A stretch of DNA of 64,000 nt from Pirellulales bacterium (GTDB lineage: Bacteria > Planctomycetota > Planctomycetia > Pirellulales > JAICIG01). Positions 11,274-42,593 of this stretch are shown piece after piece; the first letter of the stretch is position 1, and each line of letters begins with the position of its first letter. Both the position numbers and the translations under genes were made by a program. Location of the stretch: assembly GCA_035252155.1 (NCBI GenBank), contig DATFDL010000224.1, positions 2,984 to 66,983 of the forward strand, in the 5' to 3' direction. The notes beneath the pieces were generated by a model, which worked only from the letters and a program-made list of their open reading frames with translations, ran no database searches and was not told where the DNA came from.

Positions 11274-12299
11274 TCAGTAACAAACGTCGCAGACCACCAT
11301 GCGGTGATCGGAGTGCCGCGTTTTTGAACTGTACACGTCGGTGGCTCGCAATTGCGGCGAAAGCCAAATCTGGTCGATCCGCGAGAAGGGTGCAGTGTTG
11401 ATCGCGGTATTGCCCCAACCGCGGCCGGCTTCGCCGAACGCGTCGTGAAGGGACGATTGCAGCGAATCGAACACCGCGTCGCCGGGCGGAGCATTGAAAT
11501 CGCCGCCGATAATGATTGGCAATCCCGCGGAGGAATTGCCGAGTGCTGTGATGATTCGCTGCAACTGTTTGCGCCTCCGCTGGCGATTCGCGGTTTGCGC
11601 TCGCCAGCAGTCAGGTGACCACAGGTCGACGCGCACCACCGGCGCTTCCAGCCGTAAACTGATGACTTCGATTTCAGATCCCTGCCGGAGGCGTATTCGG
11701 GCATGAACAGCATTCGTCGTGATATCTTCCGGCACTGGTAGGCGGATGATTTTGCCATGCGCAATGATCGAGGCGTCGACGCCCGATAACACTTCGCCCT
11801 CATCGCCGAATAGATCGCGGGCGAATGATACGAGCGGTTCGCGACCCGGCGATTCCTGCACGAGCACGATATCTGGGCGCAGGGCGGCCAGTTCGCACAA
11901 TGCCTCGCTGCTCCCCGCGCAGTTGAGTGAAACGAGCCTGATGCCCTCGCCGCGCTCGTCGGCTGAAAACCTCAGCAGGCTTCGCGGATGGTCCGAGAAA
12001 ACGAGAAGCAACACGCACCAGGCCAGTATCCCACCAATTAACCAACGCCTGGTAAATTGCCTTCGTGCCGCGGCAACAAGTATGAGGCCAGCCAGCACCC
12101 AAACCCACACTGGGAAGACGGTAACCGCGGCCCACGCATCGAGCCTCCAGGCATAGCAGATTGCGATCGCCAAGCACAATAGTAGCGAACAGCCATAGGC
12201 GGTTCGGCTTAAATGCTTCTTAAATGCGAGCGCCCGCGATGATGTCCGCTTCAAGGATGCATCGCGCACTTCCATGGACCCTCGCGACCCTAGTTCCAT
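11274..12299 (-). CDS. endonuclease/exonuclease/phosphatase (EEP) family protein with N-terminal TM helices
   Basis: LVSLNCAG..., IVLVQES, GGDFNAPPGD and SDHRMVVCDV motifs. Start choice is uncertain among 12374, 12299 and 12275. Confidence 0.75.
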   Translation of the reverse strand: MELGSRGSMEVRDASLKRTSSRALAFKKHLSRTAYGCSLLLCLAIAICYAWRLDAWAAVTVFPVWVWVLAGLILVAAARRQFTRRWLIGGILAWCVLLLVFSDHPRSLLRFSADERGEGIRLVSLNCAGSSEALCELAALRPDIVLVQESPGREPLVSFARDLFGDEGEVLSGVDASIIAHGKIIRLPVPEDITTNAVHARIRLRQGSEIEVISLRLEAPVVRVDLWSPDCWRAQTANRQRRRKQLQRIITALGNSSAGLPIIIGGDFNAPPGDAVFDSLQSSLHDAFGEAGRGWGNTAINTAPFSRIDQIWLSPQLRATDVYSSKTRHSDHRMVVCDVCY

Positions 12300-12307
12300 A
12301 GTGCGGC

Positions 12308-12625
12308 TTACAGATGGACGGCGATCCAACGTTCCTGTTCGCCGGGCACCGGCTTCGCAGAGGATTCGGCCCACGGGATCGACTGGCCGGCGGCGCGGTA
12401 TCGCGAGACGGCAGTTTTGAACGCCGCAACCAGCGCAGCCAGCGCCTCACGTTGGCTTTTGCCGCGGGCAACCACTTCGGGCAGGTTGCACGAGCGCGCC
12501 GAAATCCATCCCTCGGCGTCCGGAGGCGAGAGAAACGCATGGCAATTGTAAACCGGCACGCTCGCGGCCGAATTGCCGTCTTCGCTGGCGGCGTGAGGGG
12601 CCGATTCGTTCAATTCGTTATTCAT
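12308..12625 (-). CDS. HicB-like (UPF0150-fold) small protein, orphan
   Basis: An internal ATG at 12625 gives 105 aa. ...GWISARSCNLPEVVARGKSQREALAALVAAFKTAVSRYRAAGQSIPW matches the HicB antitoxin pattern. No HicA gene is adjacent. Confidence 0.4.
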   Translation of the reverse strand: MNNELNESAPHAASEDGNSAASVPVYNCHAFLSPPDAEGWISARSCNLPEVVARGKSQREALAALVAAFKTAVSRYRAAGQSIPWAESSAKPVPGEQERWIAVHL

Positions 12626-16515: not shown

Positions 16516-16619
16516 CCGTGGGATCGTCGCATGAAGGACTTCTCTATATGAACGCCGCGTCCGGCAGCTCAACGAAAAAATTCTTGTGAACCTCGCGAAA
16601 CTTCCGGCGTCTAACAGGG

Positions 16620-16625
16620 TATAAT
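16620..16625 (+). promoter_or_regulatory. perfect TATAAT hexamer (candidate -10 box)
   Basis: GGGTATAATG lies in a 375-nt gene-free stretch. I found no convincing -35 element. Confidence 0.25.
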
Positions 16626-16631
16626 GTATCA

Positions 16632-16669
16632 GGCACGACCACTCACGCGATCAGGTCGTGCCGGTTTTA
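16632..16669 (+). terminator. hairpin plus short U-run (terminator or attenuator-like)
   Basis: GGCACGACC / GGTCGTGCC forms a 9-bp stem followed by GGTTTT. Confidence 0.4.
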
Positions 16670-16838
16670 ACGACTGCCCCCGGCGGGCCAGCGAGACTTT
16701 CCCATGATGTCCATACGGCCCAGCATCACCAACGAACGCAAAGGGACGGGCTTATTTGCCGGTCAACCGGCGAATTCGCTCCCCGCGCATCCGTTGCGCT
16801 TGTGACGCTCGGCCATCAAGCAAGCAAGGCTCTTCAAA

Positions 16839-16870
16839 GGCCCGGTGTCACGAGACACCGGGCCTTTTTT
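16839..16870 (+). terminator. rho-independent terminator
   Basis: GGCCCGGTGTC-ACGA-GACACCGGGCC forms a perfect 11-bp stem followed by TTTTTT. It sits 21 nt before the first tRNA. Confidence 0.85.
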
Positions 16871-16891: not shown

Positions 16892-16964
16892 GGCTCGTTC
16901 GTCTAGCGGCTCAGGATGCCGGCCCTTCAAGCCGGAGGCCGGGGTTCGACTCCCCGACGAGCTA
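16892..16964 (+). tRNA. tRNA-Glu(TTC)-like
   Basis: Acceptor GGCTCGT/ACGAGCT (G1-U72), Glu-type D arm GTCTAGCGGCTCAGGA, anticodon stem CCGGC/GCCGG with loop CCTTCAA (C rather than U at 33), T arm CGGGG-TTCGACT-CCCCG. Confidence 0.7.
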
Positions 16965-16973
16965 CTTGAAAAG

Positions 16974-17046
16974 CAGAACGTAGGAGAGCGGCCACTCCGC
17001 CTGGTCGGGGGCCAGGAGACCGCCGGTTCGAGTCCGGCCGTTCTGA
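16974..17046 (+). tRNA. tRNA-Pro(GGG)-like
   Basis: C1-G72 and A73, D stem GGAG/CTCC, anticodon stem CCTGG/CCAGG with loop TCGGGGG (C at 33), T arm GCCGG-TTCGAGT-CCGGC. Confidence 0.7.
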
Positions 17047-17065
17047 CAGACTGAACGAAGAATCA

Positions 17066-17137
17066 CGGGATGTAGGGTAGCGGTGGCCCGCGTGCCTTGG
17101 GAGCACGAGCAAGTGGGTTCAACTCCCACCGTCCCGA
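17066..17137 (+). tRNA. tRNA-Pro(TGG)
   Basis: Canonical cloverleaf: CGGGATG/CGTCCCG, anticodon stem CGTGC/GCACG with loop CTTGGGA, T arm GTGGG-TTCAACT-CCCAC, A73. Confidence 0.9.
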
Positions 17138-17148
17138 CTCGTAATCAT

Positions 17149-17237
17149 AGTCCGGTGTTGTAACGGAAGCATGGCGATCTGATACGTCGCCGGCGACCAC
17201 GCTGCGCGCGGTGCCCGTTCGACTCCACCCCGGACTA
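17149..17237 (+). tRNA. tRNA-Ile(GAT)-like carrying a 21-nt hairpin insert
   Basis: Acceptor AGTCCGG/CCGGACT, anticodon arm GCGAT-CTGATAC-GTCGC, A73. The T stem GGCG..G/CCACC closes only if 17196-17216 (ACCACGCTGCGCGCGGTGCCC) is looped out. Confidence 0.5.
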
Positions 17238-17309
17238 CTTCGCCAAAACAAGGAGAACCACAATGCGGCAGCGACAGCGGCTCAAACGCATACGCCAGAC
17301 CGACAACAT

Positions 17310-17380
17310 GGGGTCGTGGCGTAACGGTAGCGCATCCGCCTTTTAAGCGGAAGGGTGAGGGTTCGACTCCGGCTGGGTGC
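17310..17380 (+). tRNA. tRNA-Lys(TTT)-like, probably defective
   Basis: The 5' two-thirds fold well (GGGGTCG, D stem GCG/CGC, anticodon arm TCCGC-CTTTTAA-GCGGA) and a GGTTCGACTCC T-loop is present. I could not find a 3' strand that closes the T stem or acceptor stem. Confidence 0.35.
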
Positions 17381-17388
17381 TTATAGAG

Positions 17389-17484
17389 CGGCGTGTGGGA
17401 AAGCCTGGAATTCCGCGTGCTTCGGGAGCACGAAACCGACCAACGCTGCGCGTCGGTGCCCGGGTTCAAATCCGGCCACGCCGA
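17389..17484 (+). tRNA. tRNA-Pro(CGG)-like carrying a 23-25 nt hairpin insert
   Basis: Acceptor CGGCGTG/CACGCCG (C1-G72, A73), D stem GGAA/TTCC, anticodon arm CGTGC-TTCGGGA-GCACG (same stem as the TGG isoacceptor). Insert at 17439-17461 lies just 5' of GGTTCAAATCC. Confidence 0.5.
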
Positions 17485-17490
17485 CTCGAT

Positions 17491-17565
17491 TGCGGTGGGA
17501 CCCGTGCTGGTACGGGTAGGCGGCTGTTAACCGCCCTGACGCAGGTTCGATTCCTGGCGCCGCAG
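17491..17565 (+). tRNA. tRNA-Asn(GTT)
   Basis: U1-A72 and G73, D stem ACCC/GGGT, anticodon arm GGCGG-CTGTTAA-CCGCC, T arm GCAGG-TTCGATT-CCTGG. Confidence 0.85.
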
Positions 17566-17579
17566 CTCACGATGAAAAC

Positions 17580-17664
17580 GGAACGGCAAGCCAACGGGCG
17601 ATGGCAGCCGCCTCGAAAGCGGTCGAGCAGCAATGCCTTGGGAGTTCGACTCTCCCTCCTTCCG
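17580..17664 (+). tRNA. tRNA-Ser(CGA), class II
   Basis: Acceptor GGAACGG/TCCTTCC (one C-C mismatch), anticodon arm GCCGC-CTCGAAA-GCGGT, long variable arm, T arm GGGAG-TTCGACT-CTCCC, G73. Confidence 0.8.
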
Positions 17665-17671
17665 CCTTCAC

Positions 17672-17763
17672 GTGCCCTTGGCCGAGCGGCAAAGGCTCCA
17701 GCCTTCCAAGCTGGCGCGACCAACGCTGCGCGTCGGTGCCCGGTTCGACTCTCGCAGGGCACT
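17672..17763 (+). tRNA. tRNA-Gly(TCC)-like carrying a 23-nt hairpin insert
   Basis: Acceptor GTGCCCT/AGGGCAC, U73, anticodon arm CCAGC-CTTCCAA-GCTGG. The T stem GCG..GG/CTCGC closes only if 17719-17741 is looped out. Confidence 0.5.
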
Positions 17764-17773
17764 CTTTCAATGA

Positions 17774-17844
17774 TCGGGGATCGGCTAACGGTAGGCTCCC
17801 TGGCTTTGAACCAGGAGATGGAGGTTCAAGTCCTTCTCCCCGAA
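17774..17844 (+). tRNA. tRNA-Gln(TTG)
   Basis: Acceptor TCGGGGA/TCCCCGA (U1-A72), anticodon arm CCTGG-CTTTGAA-CCAGG, T arm GGAGG-TTCAAGT-CCTTC. Confidence 0.8.
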
Positions 17845-17880
17845 CTTCGGTCGCGATGGCCGTGTCCCAAGAATACATGA

Positions 17881-17974
17881 TCCGGGGCAGTTGCTGCTGG
17901 TAGTAACGCCTGGCTCCGGGCACCGTGCGCAGCATGGTCGCAGGAAGCCATTGGTTCGATTCCAACCCCCGGAA
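17881..17974 (+). tRNA. tRNA-Arg(CCG)-like carrying the hairpin insert in inverted orientation
   Basis: Acceptor TCCGGGG/CCCCGGA, D stem GTTG/TAAC, T arm ATTGG-TTCGATT-CCAAC. The anticodon stem 5' strand CCTGG and loop CTCCGGG are followed by a ~19-nt hairpin (the 17918-17938 element) before the 3' strand GCAGG. Confidence 0.45.
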
Positions 17975-17986
17975 CTTTAGACATAC

Positions 17987-18071
17987 GGAGGTCATCCGGC
18001 CGGATGAGGAGCCTGTCTTGAAAACAGGTGGCGGCGCAAGTCGCTTGTGAGTTCGAGTCTCACGGCCTCCG
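17987..18071 (+). tRNA. tRNA-Ser(TGA), class II
   Basis: Acceptor GGAGGTC/GGCCTCC, anticodon arm CCTGT-CTTGAAA-ACAGG, long variable arm, T arm GTGAG-TTCGAGT-CTCAC, G73. Confidence 0.8.
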
Positions 18072-18085
18072 CCTCTGGTGAAACA

Positions 18086-18158
18086 CGTCCCGTGGCCTAG
18101 TAGCGAAGGCAGCGCCTCCACACGGCGAAGATCGACAGTGCGAGTCTGTCCGGGACTA
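18086..18158 (+). tRNA. tRNA-Val(CAC)-like
   Basis: D stem GCC/GGC, anticodon stem CGCC/GGCG with loop TCCACAC (C at 33), T arm GACAG-TGCGAGT-CTGTC (G at 55), C1-U72 mismatch, A73. Confidence 0.55.
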
Positions 18159-18159
18159 C

Positions 18160-18234
18160 GTCCTCGTGGAGCAGCCAGGAGTGCTCGCCTGCTTGTCAGG
18201 CAGGAGGTCGCGGGTTCAAGTCCCGCCGGGGACG
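18160..18234 (+). tRNA. tRNA-Asp(GTC)
   Basis: Canonical: GTCCTCG/CGGGGAC, D stem GAGC/GCTC, anticodon arm CCTGC-TTGTCAG-GCAGG, T arm GCGGG-TTCAAGT-CCCGC, G73. Confidence 0.9.
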
Positions 18235-18248
18235 CTTTCATAAAGCAC

Positions 18249-18323
18249 GGCGCGGTACGCAAACAGGCAAAGCGGCCAAGCTCAAACCTTGGTGACCTGT
18301 CGGTTCGATTCCGACCTGCGCCA
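18249..18323 (+). tRNA. tRNA with anticodon CAA (Leu) on a short-variable-loop (class I) body
   Basis: Acceptor GGCGCGG/CTGCGCC, D stem CGC/GCG, anticodon arm CCAAG-CTCAAAC-CTTGG, ~6-nt variable loop, T arm GTCGG-TTCGATT-CCGAC, A73. Confidence 0.6.
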
Positions 18324-18459
18324 CTCGCACAACGAGCAACATGCGTCGGTTGAGCATTCGGATACAAAATCAGCGTCTATTGAGTGAACAGTGCTGGCCG
18401 GCGTTAACCGTGCGACGGCAATACGATCGAGTCCTGAACCCCGAACCTTGAACCCTCCC

Positions 18460-19050
18460 ATGGCCAAGATGCTCAACAGGCCGGCGCTGGTGCTCAACCG
18501 CAACTGGCAGCCGGTGAACGTCGCCACCGTCGCTCGCGCGCTGGTCATGCTCTTCAATGAGGCGGCCCGCGTCGTCGATCCGGCTGACTACCAGCTCTAC
18601 ACCTGGGCTGACTGGTCAGGGCTGGCTCCGCGCGACGGCGAGCCGTTCATCCAGGCGGTGAGCATGCGGTTGCGCGTACCGGAGGTGATCGTGCTGGCGG
18701 GCTACGATCGGCTGCCCGAAGCGGCCGTGGCGTTCAGCCGGCGGAACATCTTCAAGCGCGACCACTACACTTGCCAGTATTGCGGCGTACAGCCGGGCGT
18801 CGAGGAGCTGTCGATCGACCACGTAATTCCGCGGTCGCAAGGCGGCATCTCGACCTGGGACAACTGCGTGCTGGCGTGCGTGGAGTGCAACAAGCGCAAG
18901 GCCAACCGCACGCCGGCTGAGGCGGGCATGAAGCTGCGCAAGCAACCTTGCCGCCCGCAGTGGAAGCCGCTCTATGCTGCGCACAGCGTGCGTGTCGAGA
19001 GCTGGTCGAAGTTTGTCAGCGAGGCTTATTGGAGCGTCGAACTCCGCTGA
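18460..19050 (+). CDS. HNH endonuclease
   Basis: DHYTCQYCGVQPGVEELSIDHVIPRSQGGISTWDNCVLACVECNKRKANRTP is an HNH motif with two CxxC pairs. The likely start is the ATG at 18460 (MAKMLNRPALVLNRNWQPVN). Confidence 0.9.
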   Translation: MAKMLNRPALVLNRNWQPVNVATVARALVMLFNEAARVVDPADYQLYTWADWSGLAPRDGEPFIQAVSMRLRVPEVIVLAGYDRLPEAAVAFSRRNIFKRDHYTCQYCGVQPGVEELSIDHVIPRSQGGISTWDNCVLACVECNKRKANRTPAEAGMKLRKQPCRPQWKPLYAAHSVRVESWSKFVSEAYWSVELR

Positions 19051-19066
19051 GCCGCAGTTGAAGCAA

Positions 19067-19096
19067 GCCGATCCAAGCGGGGCAGCTTGGATCGGC
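19067..19096 (+). terminator. 12-bp perfect hairpin after the HNH gene
   Basis: GCCGATCCAAGC-GGGGCA-GCTTGGATCGGC. No U-run follows, so it could be a processing or terminator element. Confidence 0.4.
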
Positions 19097-19101
19097 CTTA
19101 C

Positions 19102-19171
19102 AGGATCGTGCTCCTGGGAGAGCCAGCGGTCTCCAAAGCCGCTTTACGGGGTTCGACTCCTCGCGATCCTG
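19102..19171 (+). tRNA. tRNA-Trp(CCA)-like
   Basis: Acceptor AGGATCG/CGATCCT, anticodon arm GCGGT-CTCCAAA-GCCGC, T arm CGGGG-TTCGACT-CCTCG, G73. The D arm is unusually small (CTC-CTGG-GAG). Confidence 0.65.
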
Positions 19172-19174
19172 CTT

Positions 19175-19245
19175 GTCCTGCGAGTGTGATGGAAGCACGG
19201 CAATCTTCGGAACTGTAAGACGGGGTCCGATTCCTCGGCGGGGTG
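19175..19245 (+). tRNA. tRNA-Arg(TCG)-like
   Basis: Acceptor GTCCTGC/GCGGGGT (three G-U pairs), D stem GTGT/GCAC, anticodon arm GCAAT-CTTCGGA-ACTGT (one mismatch), T arm CGGGG-TCCGATT-CCTCG (C at 55). Confidence 0.55.
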
Positions 19246-19264
19246 CTGCTGGTCATAACAACTT

Positions 19265-19337
19265 GTCCTCGGAGTGTGCCGGATTCGCACTCGAGCCCGC
19301 GAAGCTCGTAGACCAGGTTCGATTCCTGGCGAGGACG
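19265..19337 (+). tRNA. tRNA-Arg(GCG)-like
   Basis: Acceptor GTCCTCG/CGAGGAC, D stem GTGT/GCAC, anticodon stem CGAGC/GCTCG with loop CCGCGAA (C at 33), T arm CCAGG-TTCGATT-CCTGG. Confidence 0.7.
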
Positions 19338-19349
19338 CTTGAACAACCC

Positions 19350-19422
19350 GACGCTGGAGCCAGACGGCACGGCAACCGCCTGCAGAGCGGTTTCAAGCGG
19401 GTTCGACTCCCGCCGGCGTTTC
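19350..19422 (+). tRNA. tRNA-Cys(GCA)
   Basis: Acceptor GACGCTG/CGGCGTT, D stem GCC/GGC, anticodon arm ACCGC-CTGCAGA-GCGGT, T arm GCGGG-TTCGACT-CCCGC, U73. Confidence 0.85.
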
Positions 19423-42404: not shown

Positions 42405-42520
42405 TGGCGCAAACCTTTGGCTATCAATGGCTTGCGACAGGCACAAAAATTCCGGTGCGGCTCGTTGACTTTGTCGAGCCAGTCGTCTAAGTTAACCCAT
42501 AGTTGATTGCTCAAAAGACG

Positions 42521-42593
42521 TTGCGGGGGAGGGAATTGAACCCTCATTCGACGCTTTAAAGGCGTTCGTCCTACCCAATTAGACGACCCCGCA
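42521..42593 (-). tRNA. tRNA with anticodon TTA (reads UAA; ochre-suppressor type)
   Basis: Reverse strand: TGCGGGG TC GTC-TAATTGGGTAG-GAC G AACGC-CTTTAAA-GCGTC GAAT GAGGG-TTCAATT-CCCTC CCCCGCA A. It has a perfect 7-bp acceptor (U1-A72), a perfect T arm, U33, A36-A37-A38 and A73. Confidence 0.75.

Follow-up and report, generated by a model that had tools for sequence, protein, structure and literature searches.

A long-array-type tRNA operon with an embedded HNH gene and a putative attenuator leader in Pirellulales

Long tRNA arrays have been defined as horizontally spread, supernumerary and normally silent groups of tRNA genes (Santamaria-Gomez et al. 2021, PMC8421152). They have been called cryptic, and only the array of Anabaena comes with functional data, in the form of a stress response exerted via a repressor. 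In cyanobacteria an HNH endonuclease gene is conserved next to the arrays and is co-induced with the operon by translation inhibitors, and 23 of the 26 operon tRNAs of Anabaena are charged in vivo (PMC8421152). Planctomycetes were counted among the phyla with long arrays in two surveys, without detail (PMC4758250, PMC8421152). Here we describe an array of tRNA genes in a 64,000-nt stretch of DNA from a Pirellulales bacterium (contig DATFDL010000224.1, positions 2,984 to 66,983). This whole stretch is called the window, and all position numbers refer to it. An earlier note on the same DNA knew of no planctomycete case; this holds for a detailed description, and does not hold for the occurrence of long arrays in the phylum, which the two surveys had already recorded.

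The array occupies 16892-19422 and comprises 19 tRNA-derived genes, all on the + strand, in 2.5 kb around an intact HNH gene. With high confidence, the locus is a supernumerary operon of the long-array type with an integral HNH gene, and not part of the core tRNA set. We further consider it probable that the window holds a reduced copy of a conserved operon of this type that is widespread in Pirellulales and is controlled by a leader attenuator. Long arrays are a known kind of locus; the conserved control region in the leader appears to be new.

The array family and the window copy

A genome scan with one genome per species revealed 287 loci encoding relatives of the HNH protein, of which 80 were fetched as related loci; these and further loci are cited below by L numbers. 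Same-strand tRNA genes numbered 30-39 in 23 of the 80 loci, 20-29 in 20, 10-19 in 13 and 1-9 in 18, and six loci had none; some of the low counts stem from contig ends. Hence 43 of the 80 loci, with 20-39 genes, reach the minimum of 20 in the definition of a tRNA array unit. The window copy, with 16 called and 19 tRNA-derived genes, stays below that number, and its density of about 6-7.5 genes per kb (ARAGORN) exceeds the minimum of 2 per kb in the same definition. It also forms a long run of tRNA genes in one orientation, a potential operon, as in described long arrays.

The order of the genes is nearly fixed, with a median fraction of 0.96 in consensus order. The first part runs Phe-Glu-Pro-Pro-Ile-Lys-Ile(UAU)-Lys-Thr-Gly-Pro-Asn-Ser-Gly-Gln-Gln-Ser-Val-Leu-Leu-Asp-Leu-Tyr-Glu-Leu-Met-Leu-Val-Thr-Ala-Ala-Ser-Arg-His, and is followed by the HNH gene and then by Trp-Thr-Arg(x3-4)-Cys. 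In the window, 16 of the 16 called genes stand in this order, which excludes chance. Analysis of eight well-preserved loci with the Rfam tRNA model RF00005 gave 221 matches at or above the threshold of 29 bits, many of them scoring 50-75 bits.

Compared with the family, the window lacks Phe, Ile-UAU, Lys-CUU, Thr, Gly-GCC, two Leu genes and the entire block from Tyr to His, and no convincing His remnant was detected between Leu-CAA and the HNH gene. The window copy is a deletion derivative that has kept the consensus order and lost about half of its genes. Its closest relative, L002, encodes an HNH protein 95% identical to that of the window and carries a different tRNA complement. The individual features of the window array are as follows.

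16892-16964, + strand, tRNA-Glu (UUC); ARAGORN, RF00005 55.7 bits
16974-17046, + strand, tRNA-Pro (GGG); ARAGORN, RF00005 53.2 bits
17066-17137, + strand, tRNA-Pro (UGG); ARAGORN, RF00005 57.2 bits
17149-17237, + strand, tRNA-Ile (GAU), hairpin repeat inside; ARAGORN only
17310-17380, + strand, tRNA-Lys (UUU) pseudogene; RF00005 35.3 bits over model positions 6-65 only, no ARAGORN call
17389-17484, + strand, tRNA-Pro (CGG), hairpin repeat inside; ARAGORN, RF00005 38.5 bits
17491-17565, + strand, tRNA-Asn (GUU); ARAGORN, 75/76 identical to an orthologue
17580-17665, + strand, tRNA-Ser (CGA), class II; ARAGORN, tRNA-Sec model 33.4 bits
17672-17763, + strand, tRNA-Gly (UCC), hairpin repeat inside; ARAGORN, RF00005 35.4 bits
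17774-17844, + strand, tRNA-Gln (UUG); RF00005 60.3 bits
17881-17973, + strand, tRNA-Gln (CUG) pseudogene, hairpin repeat inside; orthology to Gln-CUG of L019
17987-18072, + strand, tRNA-Ser (UGA), class II; ARAGORN, tRNA-Sec model 43 bits
18086-18158, + strand, tRNA-Val (CAC); RF00005 44.4 bits
18160-18234, + strand, tRNA-Asp (GUC); RF00005 54.4 bits
18249-18323, + strand, tRNA-Leu (CAA), class-I size, A73, without a long variable arm; RF00005 52.8 bits
18460-19050, + strand, HNH endonuclease, 196 aa; Pfam HNH and HNH_5
19102-19171, + strand, tRNA-Trp (CCA); ARAGORN, RF00005 30.4 bits, 68/71 identical to L007
19175-19245, + strand, tRNA-Arg (UCG), weak scorer; RF00005 26.9 bits (below 29), 68/72 identical to Arg-UCG of L007, itself called by ARAGORN
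19265-19337, + strand, tRNA-Arg (GCG); ARAGORN, 73/75 identical to L007
19350-19421, + strand, tRNA-Cys (GCA); RF00005 43.2 bits

ARAGORN called 18 tRNA genes in the window, 16 of them on the + strand within the array. The RF00005 threshold was reached by 12 array genes, 10 in the gathering scan (including the partial Lys gene) and two, Pro-CGG and Trp, in E-value mode. Both Ser genes were called by ARAGORN and matched the class-II-like tRNA-Sec model, and the two genes called by no tool (19175-19245 and 17881-17973) were assigned through orthology. About 14 of the tRNAs are apparently intact. Damage affects the other five, through a dispersed hairpin repeat in four of them and a deletion in the fifth.

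The earlier note had folded 19 cloverleaf-type genes at these places and taken them for real tRNA descendants, which the tool calls, orthology and consensus order bear out. Its spacer lengths were accurate, as were the absence of Ala, Phe, His, Met, Thr and Tyr genes and the agreement of acceptor-stem and discriminator nucleotides with the anticodons, read from the sequences. The list of anticodons is right except at gene 11, where a supposed Arg-CCG is Gln-CUG and the letters CCG are repeat sequence. The statement that about half of the genes deviate from the canonical fold was too strong, given that five of the 19 are visibly damaged and the short Leu is conserved. Orthologues of this Leu-CAA gene retain the cloverleaf via compensatory stem changes, indicating selection for the cloverleaf in the one gene family tested; the short arm is a conserved and structurally constrained feature, not damage.

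The full arrays of relatives also carry a Met(CAU) gene of 69-70 nt, conserved across loci (L024 3495-3564, L007 4763-4832 and orthologues), with a C1.A72 mismatch and a T loop of GGGTGCGAC instead of GGTTCGA. By its mismatch the gene appears to be initiator-like, and the tRNAs of a full array would together form a nearly complete alternative decoding set that includes this Met and Ile-UAU. After Cys, some arrays end in one more tRNA-like gene with an odd, variable anticodon loop, read AUG or UUA (L013 4308, L017 2501, L044 8055, L058 9057, L069 8490). At 42520-42593 on the - strand, the window itself contains a stand-alone tRNA gene (59.9 bits) whose UUA anticodon would pair with the stop codon UAA. 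Its first pair is U1-A72 and its body is nearest to Gln tRNAs (74-77% identity); it may be a suppressor or a mutated Gln/Lys gene, and is different from the UUA-anticodon gene that ends the L069 array.

The array is flanked in the window by two TPM-domain genes, a copper amine oxidase gene and a PD40-repeat gene. No flanking protein gene of the window was matched in any of the 80 loci, even where the HNH proteins are 91-93% identical; neighbours vary between loci, as does the presence of the array, and no integrase or transposase was found among the neighbours of the loci examined. Judged on this genomic context, the distribution appears patchy and non-vertical. Some genomes hold two or three copies of the array, with HNH genes 77-99% identical in nucleotide sequence. 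Canonical Lys-UUU and Asp-GUC genes outside the arrays of L022 and L020 are 68% and 59% identical to the array copies of the same loci, and a canonical class-II Leu-UAG gene was called by ARAGORN elsewhere in the window, 30 kb from the array.

The differing flanks, the multiple copies and the canonical tRNAs of the same anticodons outside the arrays together indicate, at the level of the loci studied, that the array is supernumerary. The earlier note had proposed that an array forming the only copy of its isoacceptors in all relatives would be ordinary core organisation, and these outside copies show that it is not the only one. A housekeeping tRNA operon of Pirellulales would explain why the order is conserved across many genomes and why the full version is a nearly complete isoacceptor set. 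It conflicts with copy numbers from zero to at least three, with contents of 0-39 genes, with the missing synteny, with the divergent canonical copies, with the unusual bodies of the short-armed Leu and the Met with its odd T loop, and with a terminator immediately before the first gene. This explanation is strongly disfavoured, to the point of being scarcely credible.

Two observations on neighbouring genes were made along the way. Three otherwise unlike contexts have a Band_7 (SPFH) gene 2-4 kb downstream of the array (L001 10278-11168, L212 12643-13746, L213 13528-14013), which may represent partial synteny in a subclade. In one locus, L211, the array is flanked by genes for sigma factors of the extracytoplasmic function (ECF) type (2005-2577 and 11280-12530), notable in view of the ECF-like promoter motif described below.

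The leader region and its predicted attenuator

At least 45 loci share about 175 nt of alignable sequence upstream of the first tRNA gene, and 36 have a promoter motif farther upstream. In the window the entire leader measures about 300 nt (16586-16870). Its features, with those of a second small open reading frame (ORF) inside the array, are listed below.

16586-16614, + strand, promoter motif GTGAACC, 14 nt, GCGTCTAA (GAAC-N17-CGTCT), with an A-tract before it; locus comparison
16632-16668, + strand, hairpin with a short U-run in the 5' untranslated region, present in only some relatives; minimum free energy (MFE) fold
16704-16805, + strand, leader ORF of 33 codons, MMSIRPSITNERKGTGLFAGQPANSLPAHPLRL and stop; frame conservation
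16717-16729, + strand, putative attenuator segment 1, leader codons 5-9, pairing with segment 2; MFE fold
16802-16814, + strand, putative attenuator segment 2 (GTGACGCTCGGCC), containing the leader stop codon and pairing with segment 1 or 3
16839-16870, + strand, predicted intrinsic terminator of segments 3 and 4 and a T6 run, its end 21 nt upstream of the first tRNA; terminator scan
17250-17346, + strand, Shine-Dalgarno sequence AAGGAG (17250-17255) and mini-ORF from ATG at 17263 to TAA at 17344-17346, MRQRQRLKRIRQTDNMGSWRNGSASAF and stop

The spaced motif GAAC-N16-19-CGTCT occurred 87 times, compared with about 32 times in shuffled sequences, and once in the window. Of the 87 copies, 38, in 36 loci, lie 200-420 nt upstream of a + strand tRNA. 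We take the GAAC-N17-CGTCT form to resemble promoters recognised by ECF sigma factors. A scan for sigma-70 promoters found nothing. About 20 nt lie between the end of the T-run and the first tRNA, too few for a separate promoter.

The leader ORF begins at a conserved ATG and ends at a conserved TGA; indels notwithstanding, its frame stays open in about 40 of 45 loci and encodes 31-45 aa. Its C-terminus reads (H/Y)P(L/M/F)R(L/M)-stop, with synonymous variation at the Pro, Arg and Leu codons, and positions 4-7 are rich in A/T-rich rare codons, among them ATA, TTA and AGT. One inner hairpin of the leader (GCCGNTCAANCGGC) covaries at the cost of amino acids. A reading of the ORF as a pure artefact of RNA structure was considered and set aside, as the frame kept across indels and the synonymous variation favour translation.

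Three helices were identified in the leader RNA. The helix between segments 1 and 2 is paired in 82% of cells over 27 sequences, with 11 compensatory cells, compared with 29-40% in slid controls, and its score was reached by none of 500 shuffles. Segment 3 is the 5' arm of the terminator, and its helix with segment 2 becomes the MFE structure once the terminator 3' arm is omitted; this 2:3 helix can form in 89.5% of cells over 31 sequences, against 27-43% when slid. The terminator itself has 13 pairs by RNAalifold, four of them with compensatory changes. No known family, be it a T-box, a riboswitch or another, was matched in the leader by Rfam searches up to an E-value of 10. With mutually exclusive helices (1:2 and 2:3) that overlap an ORF, and an intrinsic terminator directly upstream of the genes to be regulated, the leader has the predicted architecture of a trp-type attenuator. 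The strong terminator that the earlier note had placed 21 nt upstream of the array is thus present as a hairpin with a T-run; it is not free-standing and belongs to this conserved leader.

A full unit would consist of an ECF-like promoter, the leader ORF with a four-segment attenuator, about 34 tRNA genes from Phe to His, the HNH gene, and then Trp, Thr, three to four Arg and Cys. In the proposed pathway, transcription would start at the promoter motif and normally end at the leader terminator. A ribosome at the leader stop codon would cover segment 2, allowing segments 3 and 4 to form the terminator, and in the absence of translation segment 1 would pair with segment 2, again giving the terminator; both states are off. 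Only a ribosome stalled on the rare-codon stretch, codons 4-9, would mask segment 1 and leave segment 2 free to pair with segment 3. The 2:3 pairing would then let RNA polymerase read into the tRNA genes and the HNH gene. The array would accordingly represent a spare tRNA set that is turned on when decoding fails, for example through tRNA damage or depletion or through ribosome inhibitors. The HNH protein would be an integral, DNA-type nuclease that most likely maintains, duplicates or spreads the array, as SegB does in phage T4. In the window copy both the leader and the HNH gene are intact.

Between Ile and Lys, the array holds the mini-ORF listed above with its strong Shine-Dalgarno sequence; the ORF enters the Lys gene and in most loci stops at the UAA of the Lys anticodon loop. 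Of 30 loci, 26 share a Shine-Dalgarno sequence, an ATG and a M..(R)LKRIR(P).. motif, whose codons vary synonymously, but Ile is encoded by the rare ATA in nearly every locus shown. A gap of about 70 nt before the Lys gene, described earlier as spacing, has that length; it holds this conserved ribosome-binding site and ORF. A translated ORF within a tRNA operon would be unusual.

A number of points weigh against the reading of the locus as an operon under leader attenuation with an integral nuclease. The attenuation logic, in which we have moderate confidence, was derived from sequence alone, and it takes for granted both intrinsic termination and the coupling of transcription and translation in Planctomycetes. 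The 2:3 antiterminator, both strands of which are conserved, shows almost no covariation; the Shine-Dalgarno site is weak or absent in most leaders; and the assignment of the promoter to the ECF type rests on resemblance. The conserved sequence of the leader peptide is superfluous to a simple codon-sensing model, so that the model is incomplete, and the second mini-ORF has no role in it. Redundancy of the array tRNAs was established at the locus level only. The window copy, with damage in a quarter of its genes and without Phe, the first gene, could reflect decay as much as function. Finally, an AlphaFold model of the HNH protein, built from a 20-sequence alignment, reached a predicted local distance difference test score of 38 and was unusable.

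The attenuated-operon reading may be extended, more doubtfully, to a self-contained emergency decoding module. Its attenuator would sense stalls on rare codons and release a full alternative tRNA set, together with the HNH protein as a working partner and not a selfish passenger. The HNH protein might then attack the source of stress, or remodel or amplify the array. Such a module would be the first tRNA operon known under ribosome-mediated attenuation, and would offer a general, testable function for long arrays.

The HNH gene and the dispersed hairpin repeat

The HNH ORF matched Pfam HNH (2.9e-15) in addition to HNH_5. The protein consists of an uncharacterised N-terminal part of about 100 aa, with no match in Pfam or among PDB sequences, followed by an IscB/Cas9-type HNH motif that is nearest to the DNA-cutting HNH domains of IscB, Cas9 and group II intron maturases. 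More than 5000 homologues are present in the databases; the best 120 are 76-95% identical, and the few named ones belong to Planctomycetota/Pirellulales. The copies in the 80 loci are 68-93% identical to the window HNH. The gene is intact in 81 loci, with a median ratio of nonsynonymous to synonymous substitution rates (dN/dS) of 0.215, and of 0.12-0.17 between the window and its nearest relatives; it is under purifying selection.

The HNH gene lies between His and Trp in every locus examined where those genes survive. Six arrays were retrieved via the hairpin repeat described below, and thus without the HNH gene as bait; all six have a gap of 570-846 nt after His, fitting an HNH gene. Among these six, a small sample, no HNH-less allele was found that could serve as a homing target, and the presence and absence of the gene between alleles that marks a homing endonuclease was not seen. 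The earlier note had correctly placed a single HNH gene between genes 15 and 16; its picture of a gene that splits the array is at odds with the fixed His-Trp position, the six bait-free arrays and the median dN/dS. Leader and HNH gene persist after the loss of all tRNAs in L012, L016, L025, L026, L040 and L073, and L023 keeps one His gene, which suggests that the HNH gene is maintained in its own right, under unchanged control.

These data also bear on the possibility that the locus is a selfish relic, a cassette of tRNA genes and HNH gene spread by HNH-driven homing or recombination without host benefit, and decaying in the window. In line with it, flanks are non-syntenic, some genomes hold several copies, and tRNA content turns over fast even at 95% HNH identity (window compared with L002). 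Five of the 19 window genes are damaged, modules of leader and HNH outlive all tRNAs (L012, L073), and T4 SegB provides a precedent (PMC8421152, PMC13096335). Yet about 96% order conservation over an order-level clade, with compensatory stem changes, implies selection on the tRNAs, and a conserved and elaborate promoter and attenuator are hard to explain for useless cargo. The lack of an HNH-less allele in the six independently retrieved arrays, and of integrase or transposase neighbours at the loci examined, likewise speaks against it. We regard the relic as unlikely, though the strongest of the alternatives. A SegB-like role of the HNH protein in keeping, copying or amplifying the array, argued by analogy, is our best guess, held with low confidence.

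The tRNA-like RNAs could instead act outside translation, as decoys, as substrates of aminoacyl-transferases or as regulators, with the HNH protein acting on RNA. Some bodies are unusual for tRNAs, non-canonical functions were left open for long arrays (PMC8421152), and certain HNH nucleases cleave tRNA according to PMC13096335; the HNH protein also gave a weak match (9e-10) to Septu PtuB, via the HNH motif only. The identity nucleotides, however, agree with the anticodons, the set leaves hardly any codon uncovered, the corresponding tRNAs of Anabaena are charged, and the HNH motif is nearest to the DNA-cleaving domains named above. A role outside translation is therefore very improbable.

The damage in the window array was traced to one repeat and one deletion. 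The over-long Ile-GAU, Pro-CGG and Gly-UCC genes share a hairpin sequence of 22-26 bp, for example GACCAACGCTGCGCGTCGGTGCCC, at the junction of variable region and T stem, with forward copies at 17195-17216 (Ile), 17438-17461 (Pro-CGG) and 17718-17741 (Gly). A copy in reverse orientation, 17918-17939, replaces the anticodon loop of gene 11 (17881-17973), which outside the insert is 72/76 identical to Gln-CUG genes of related arrays such as that of L019. From this identity and the reverse-complement repeat in the loop, gene 11 was assigned as Gln-CUG with its anticodon loop replaced. Alignment to uninterrupted orthologues revealed that insertion replaces 1-8 nt of the target.

The effects differ between genes. 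Ile-GAU, which was aligned with an uninterrupted orthologue and is present in identical interrupted form in L002, is probably impaired by the repeat. Pro-CGG may still work, as a bulged T stem remains possible and both sides of one pair are altered. The repeat weakens the T stem of Gly-UCC, of which L007 holds an uninterrupted gene. In the Lys gene, part of the T arm and the 3' acceptor strand are missing, and the gene scores 35 bits compared with 75 bits for the orthologue in L014.

The repeat family has the consensus CG-ACC-A-(3-4 nt)-loop-(3-4 nt)-C-GGT-GCCCG. Variation in its stems is compensatory, and one strand retains an A.C mismatch, which reads G.T on the opposite strand. Copies were found in L007-L086 and L090-L209 as well; inside tRNA genes they occur in both orientations, and they are often nested in other palindromes or in one another. 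The repeat is about 15 times as frequent in arrays as in their flanks, and all four copies in the window lie within the array. An array-specific, HNH-linked element was ruled out by a metagenome scan with exact 24-mers, in which 87 of 134 copies were on contigs without a tRNA nearby; the repeat is dispersed. Its enrichment may reflect tRNA genes offering hairpins and array genes being dispensable. The inserts were also considered as class-II-like variable arms that redirect charging, in the manner of allo-tRNAs; this was rejected, as the same sequence occurs reversed in anticodon and D loops and outside tRNAs.

No transposase associated with the repeat was identified, and no published description of the family CG-ACC...GGT-GCCCG was found. 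The repeat resembles palindromic repeats of the repetitive extragenic palindromic (REP) and miniature inverted-repeat transposable element (MITE) kinds in being dispersed, in both orientations, with compensatory stem variation and self-nesting, and differs from them in landing inside tRNA gene bodies, where it replaces 1-8 nt. Within tRNA genes it is a mechanical cause of apparent extra arms or wrong anticodons.

Comparison with known arrays and attenuators

The Pirellulales arrays constitute a second large family of long arrays, found in hundreds of genomes and thousands of metagenome contigs, with a fixed order and an embedded, conserved HNH gene. Their predicted attenuator looks like a different route, the sensing of ribosome stalls, to the same stress logic as in Anabaena. 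If this is correct, conditional spare tRNA sets would be a recurrent bacterial strategy, and tRNA-cleaving toxins, phage defence and counter-defence, and antibiotics would be candidate threats. The family also raises the question of why an HNH nuclease always accompanies the arrays. In the literature searched, no report was found of a tRNA operon under leader-peptide attenuation, nor of this control region.

The window HNH protein shares 36% identity, along 84% of its length, with the HNH protein beside the trn operon of Anabaena PCC 7120 (pCC7120delta), where 24 tRNA genes follow the HNH gene in an operon of 24-26 genes. Both proteins match the phage protein family phrog_16726 nearly over their full length (window residues 7-187). 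The Anabaena protein was taken to be all8564, being the sole HNH next to the operon in a record without the old locus tag, and the HNH protein of the window array is orthologous to it by this identity and the common family. This homology supports the earlier assignment of the locus to a kind of tRNA array with HNH gene known from cyanobacteria, actinobacteria and phages.

The shared phage protein family is also one argument for a phage- or prophage-derived tRNA island that serves codon compensation or protects against tRNA-cleaving defences. One close and two distant loci with array and HNH gene were found in IMG/VR, and phage tRNAs evade tRNA-targeting defences (PMC11555353). Against this, the close match is one in 2.9 million viral contigs, compared with 287 loci in genomes, and the examined flanks contain no phage structural or integrase genes such as would be expected around a phage tRNA cluster. 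A base composition profile of the window gave no island signal, the array having the same composition as its surroundings. We consider a phage island improbable. On the two distant IMG/VR contigs, L088 and L089, an HNH homologue of 33% identity is accompanied by 10-11 tRNA genes about 1 kb downstream, as in cyanobacteria.

Returning to the supernumerary operon, its closest described counterpart is the Anabaena array. Both consist of dozens of extra tRNA genes on the same strand with a patchy, non-syntenic distribution and some pseudogenes, and in both the Leu genes are without the long variable arm. The Anabaena array is induced by translational stress, and the same logic is predicted from sequence features for the Pirellulales arrays. 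The two differ in gene order and in the internal mini-ORF with its Shine-Dalgarno site, found in Pirellulales. They also differ in the place of the HNH gene, which is embedded between His and Trp in Pirellulales and upstream with its own promoter in Anabaena. Control in Anabaena involves direct repeats bound by a repressor (TrcR, PMC10272220), in contrast to the putative ECF-like promoter and leader-peptide attenuator of Pirellulales. The Pirellulales family, moreover, spans an order-level clade with up to three copies per genome.

Other arrays and clusters were compared in the same way. The tRNA array units of Tran et al. 2016 (PMC4758250) share the high density of tRNA genes and are defined by at least 20 genes, compared with 16-19 in the window and up to 39 in its relatives. 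Mycobacterium arrays (PMC5966550, PMC12803027) are likewise regarded as horizontally acquired and redundant, and HNH genes are mentioned in a mycobacterial study; they reside on plasmids, phages or islands, whereas no mobility genes were seen at the Pirellulales loci examined. The T4 segB gene is, like the HNH gene, a free-standing endonuclease gene inside a tRNA cluster, and SegB promotes inheritance or amplification of its cluster. It encodes a GIY-YIG enzyme in a phage, in contrast to an HNH enzyme in bacterial chromosomes for which no empty target allele was seen.

The leader resembles those of trp and his, and of the antibiotic-sensing bmrCD, msrD and erm, in combining a small ORF with three helices that exclude one another (1:2, 2:3 and 3:4) and with an intrinsic terminator directly upstream of the genes. 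It differs from these leaders in that it would serve a tRNA operon and a nuclease, in having no run of one regulatory codon, in the conserved sequence of its peptide, and in a stop codon that lies inside segment 2.

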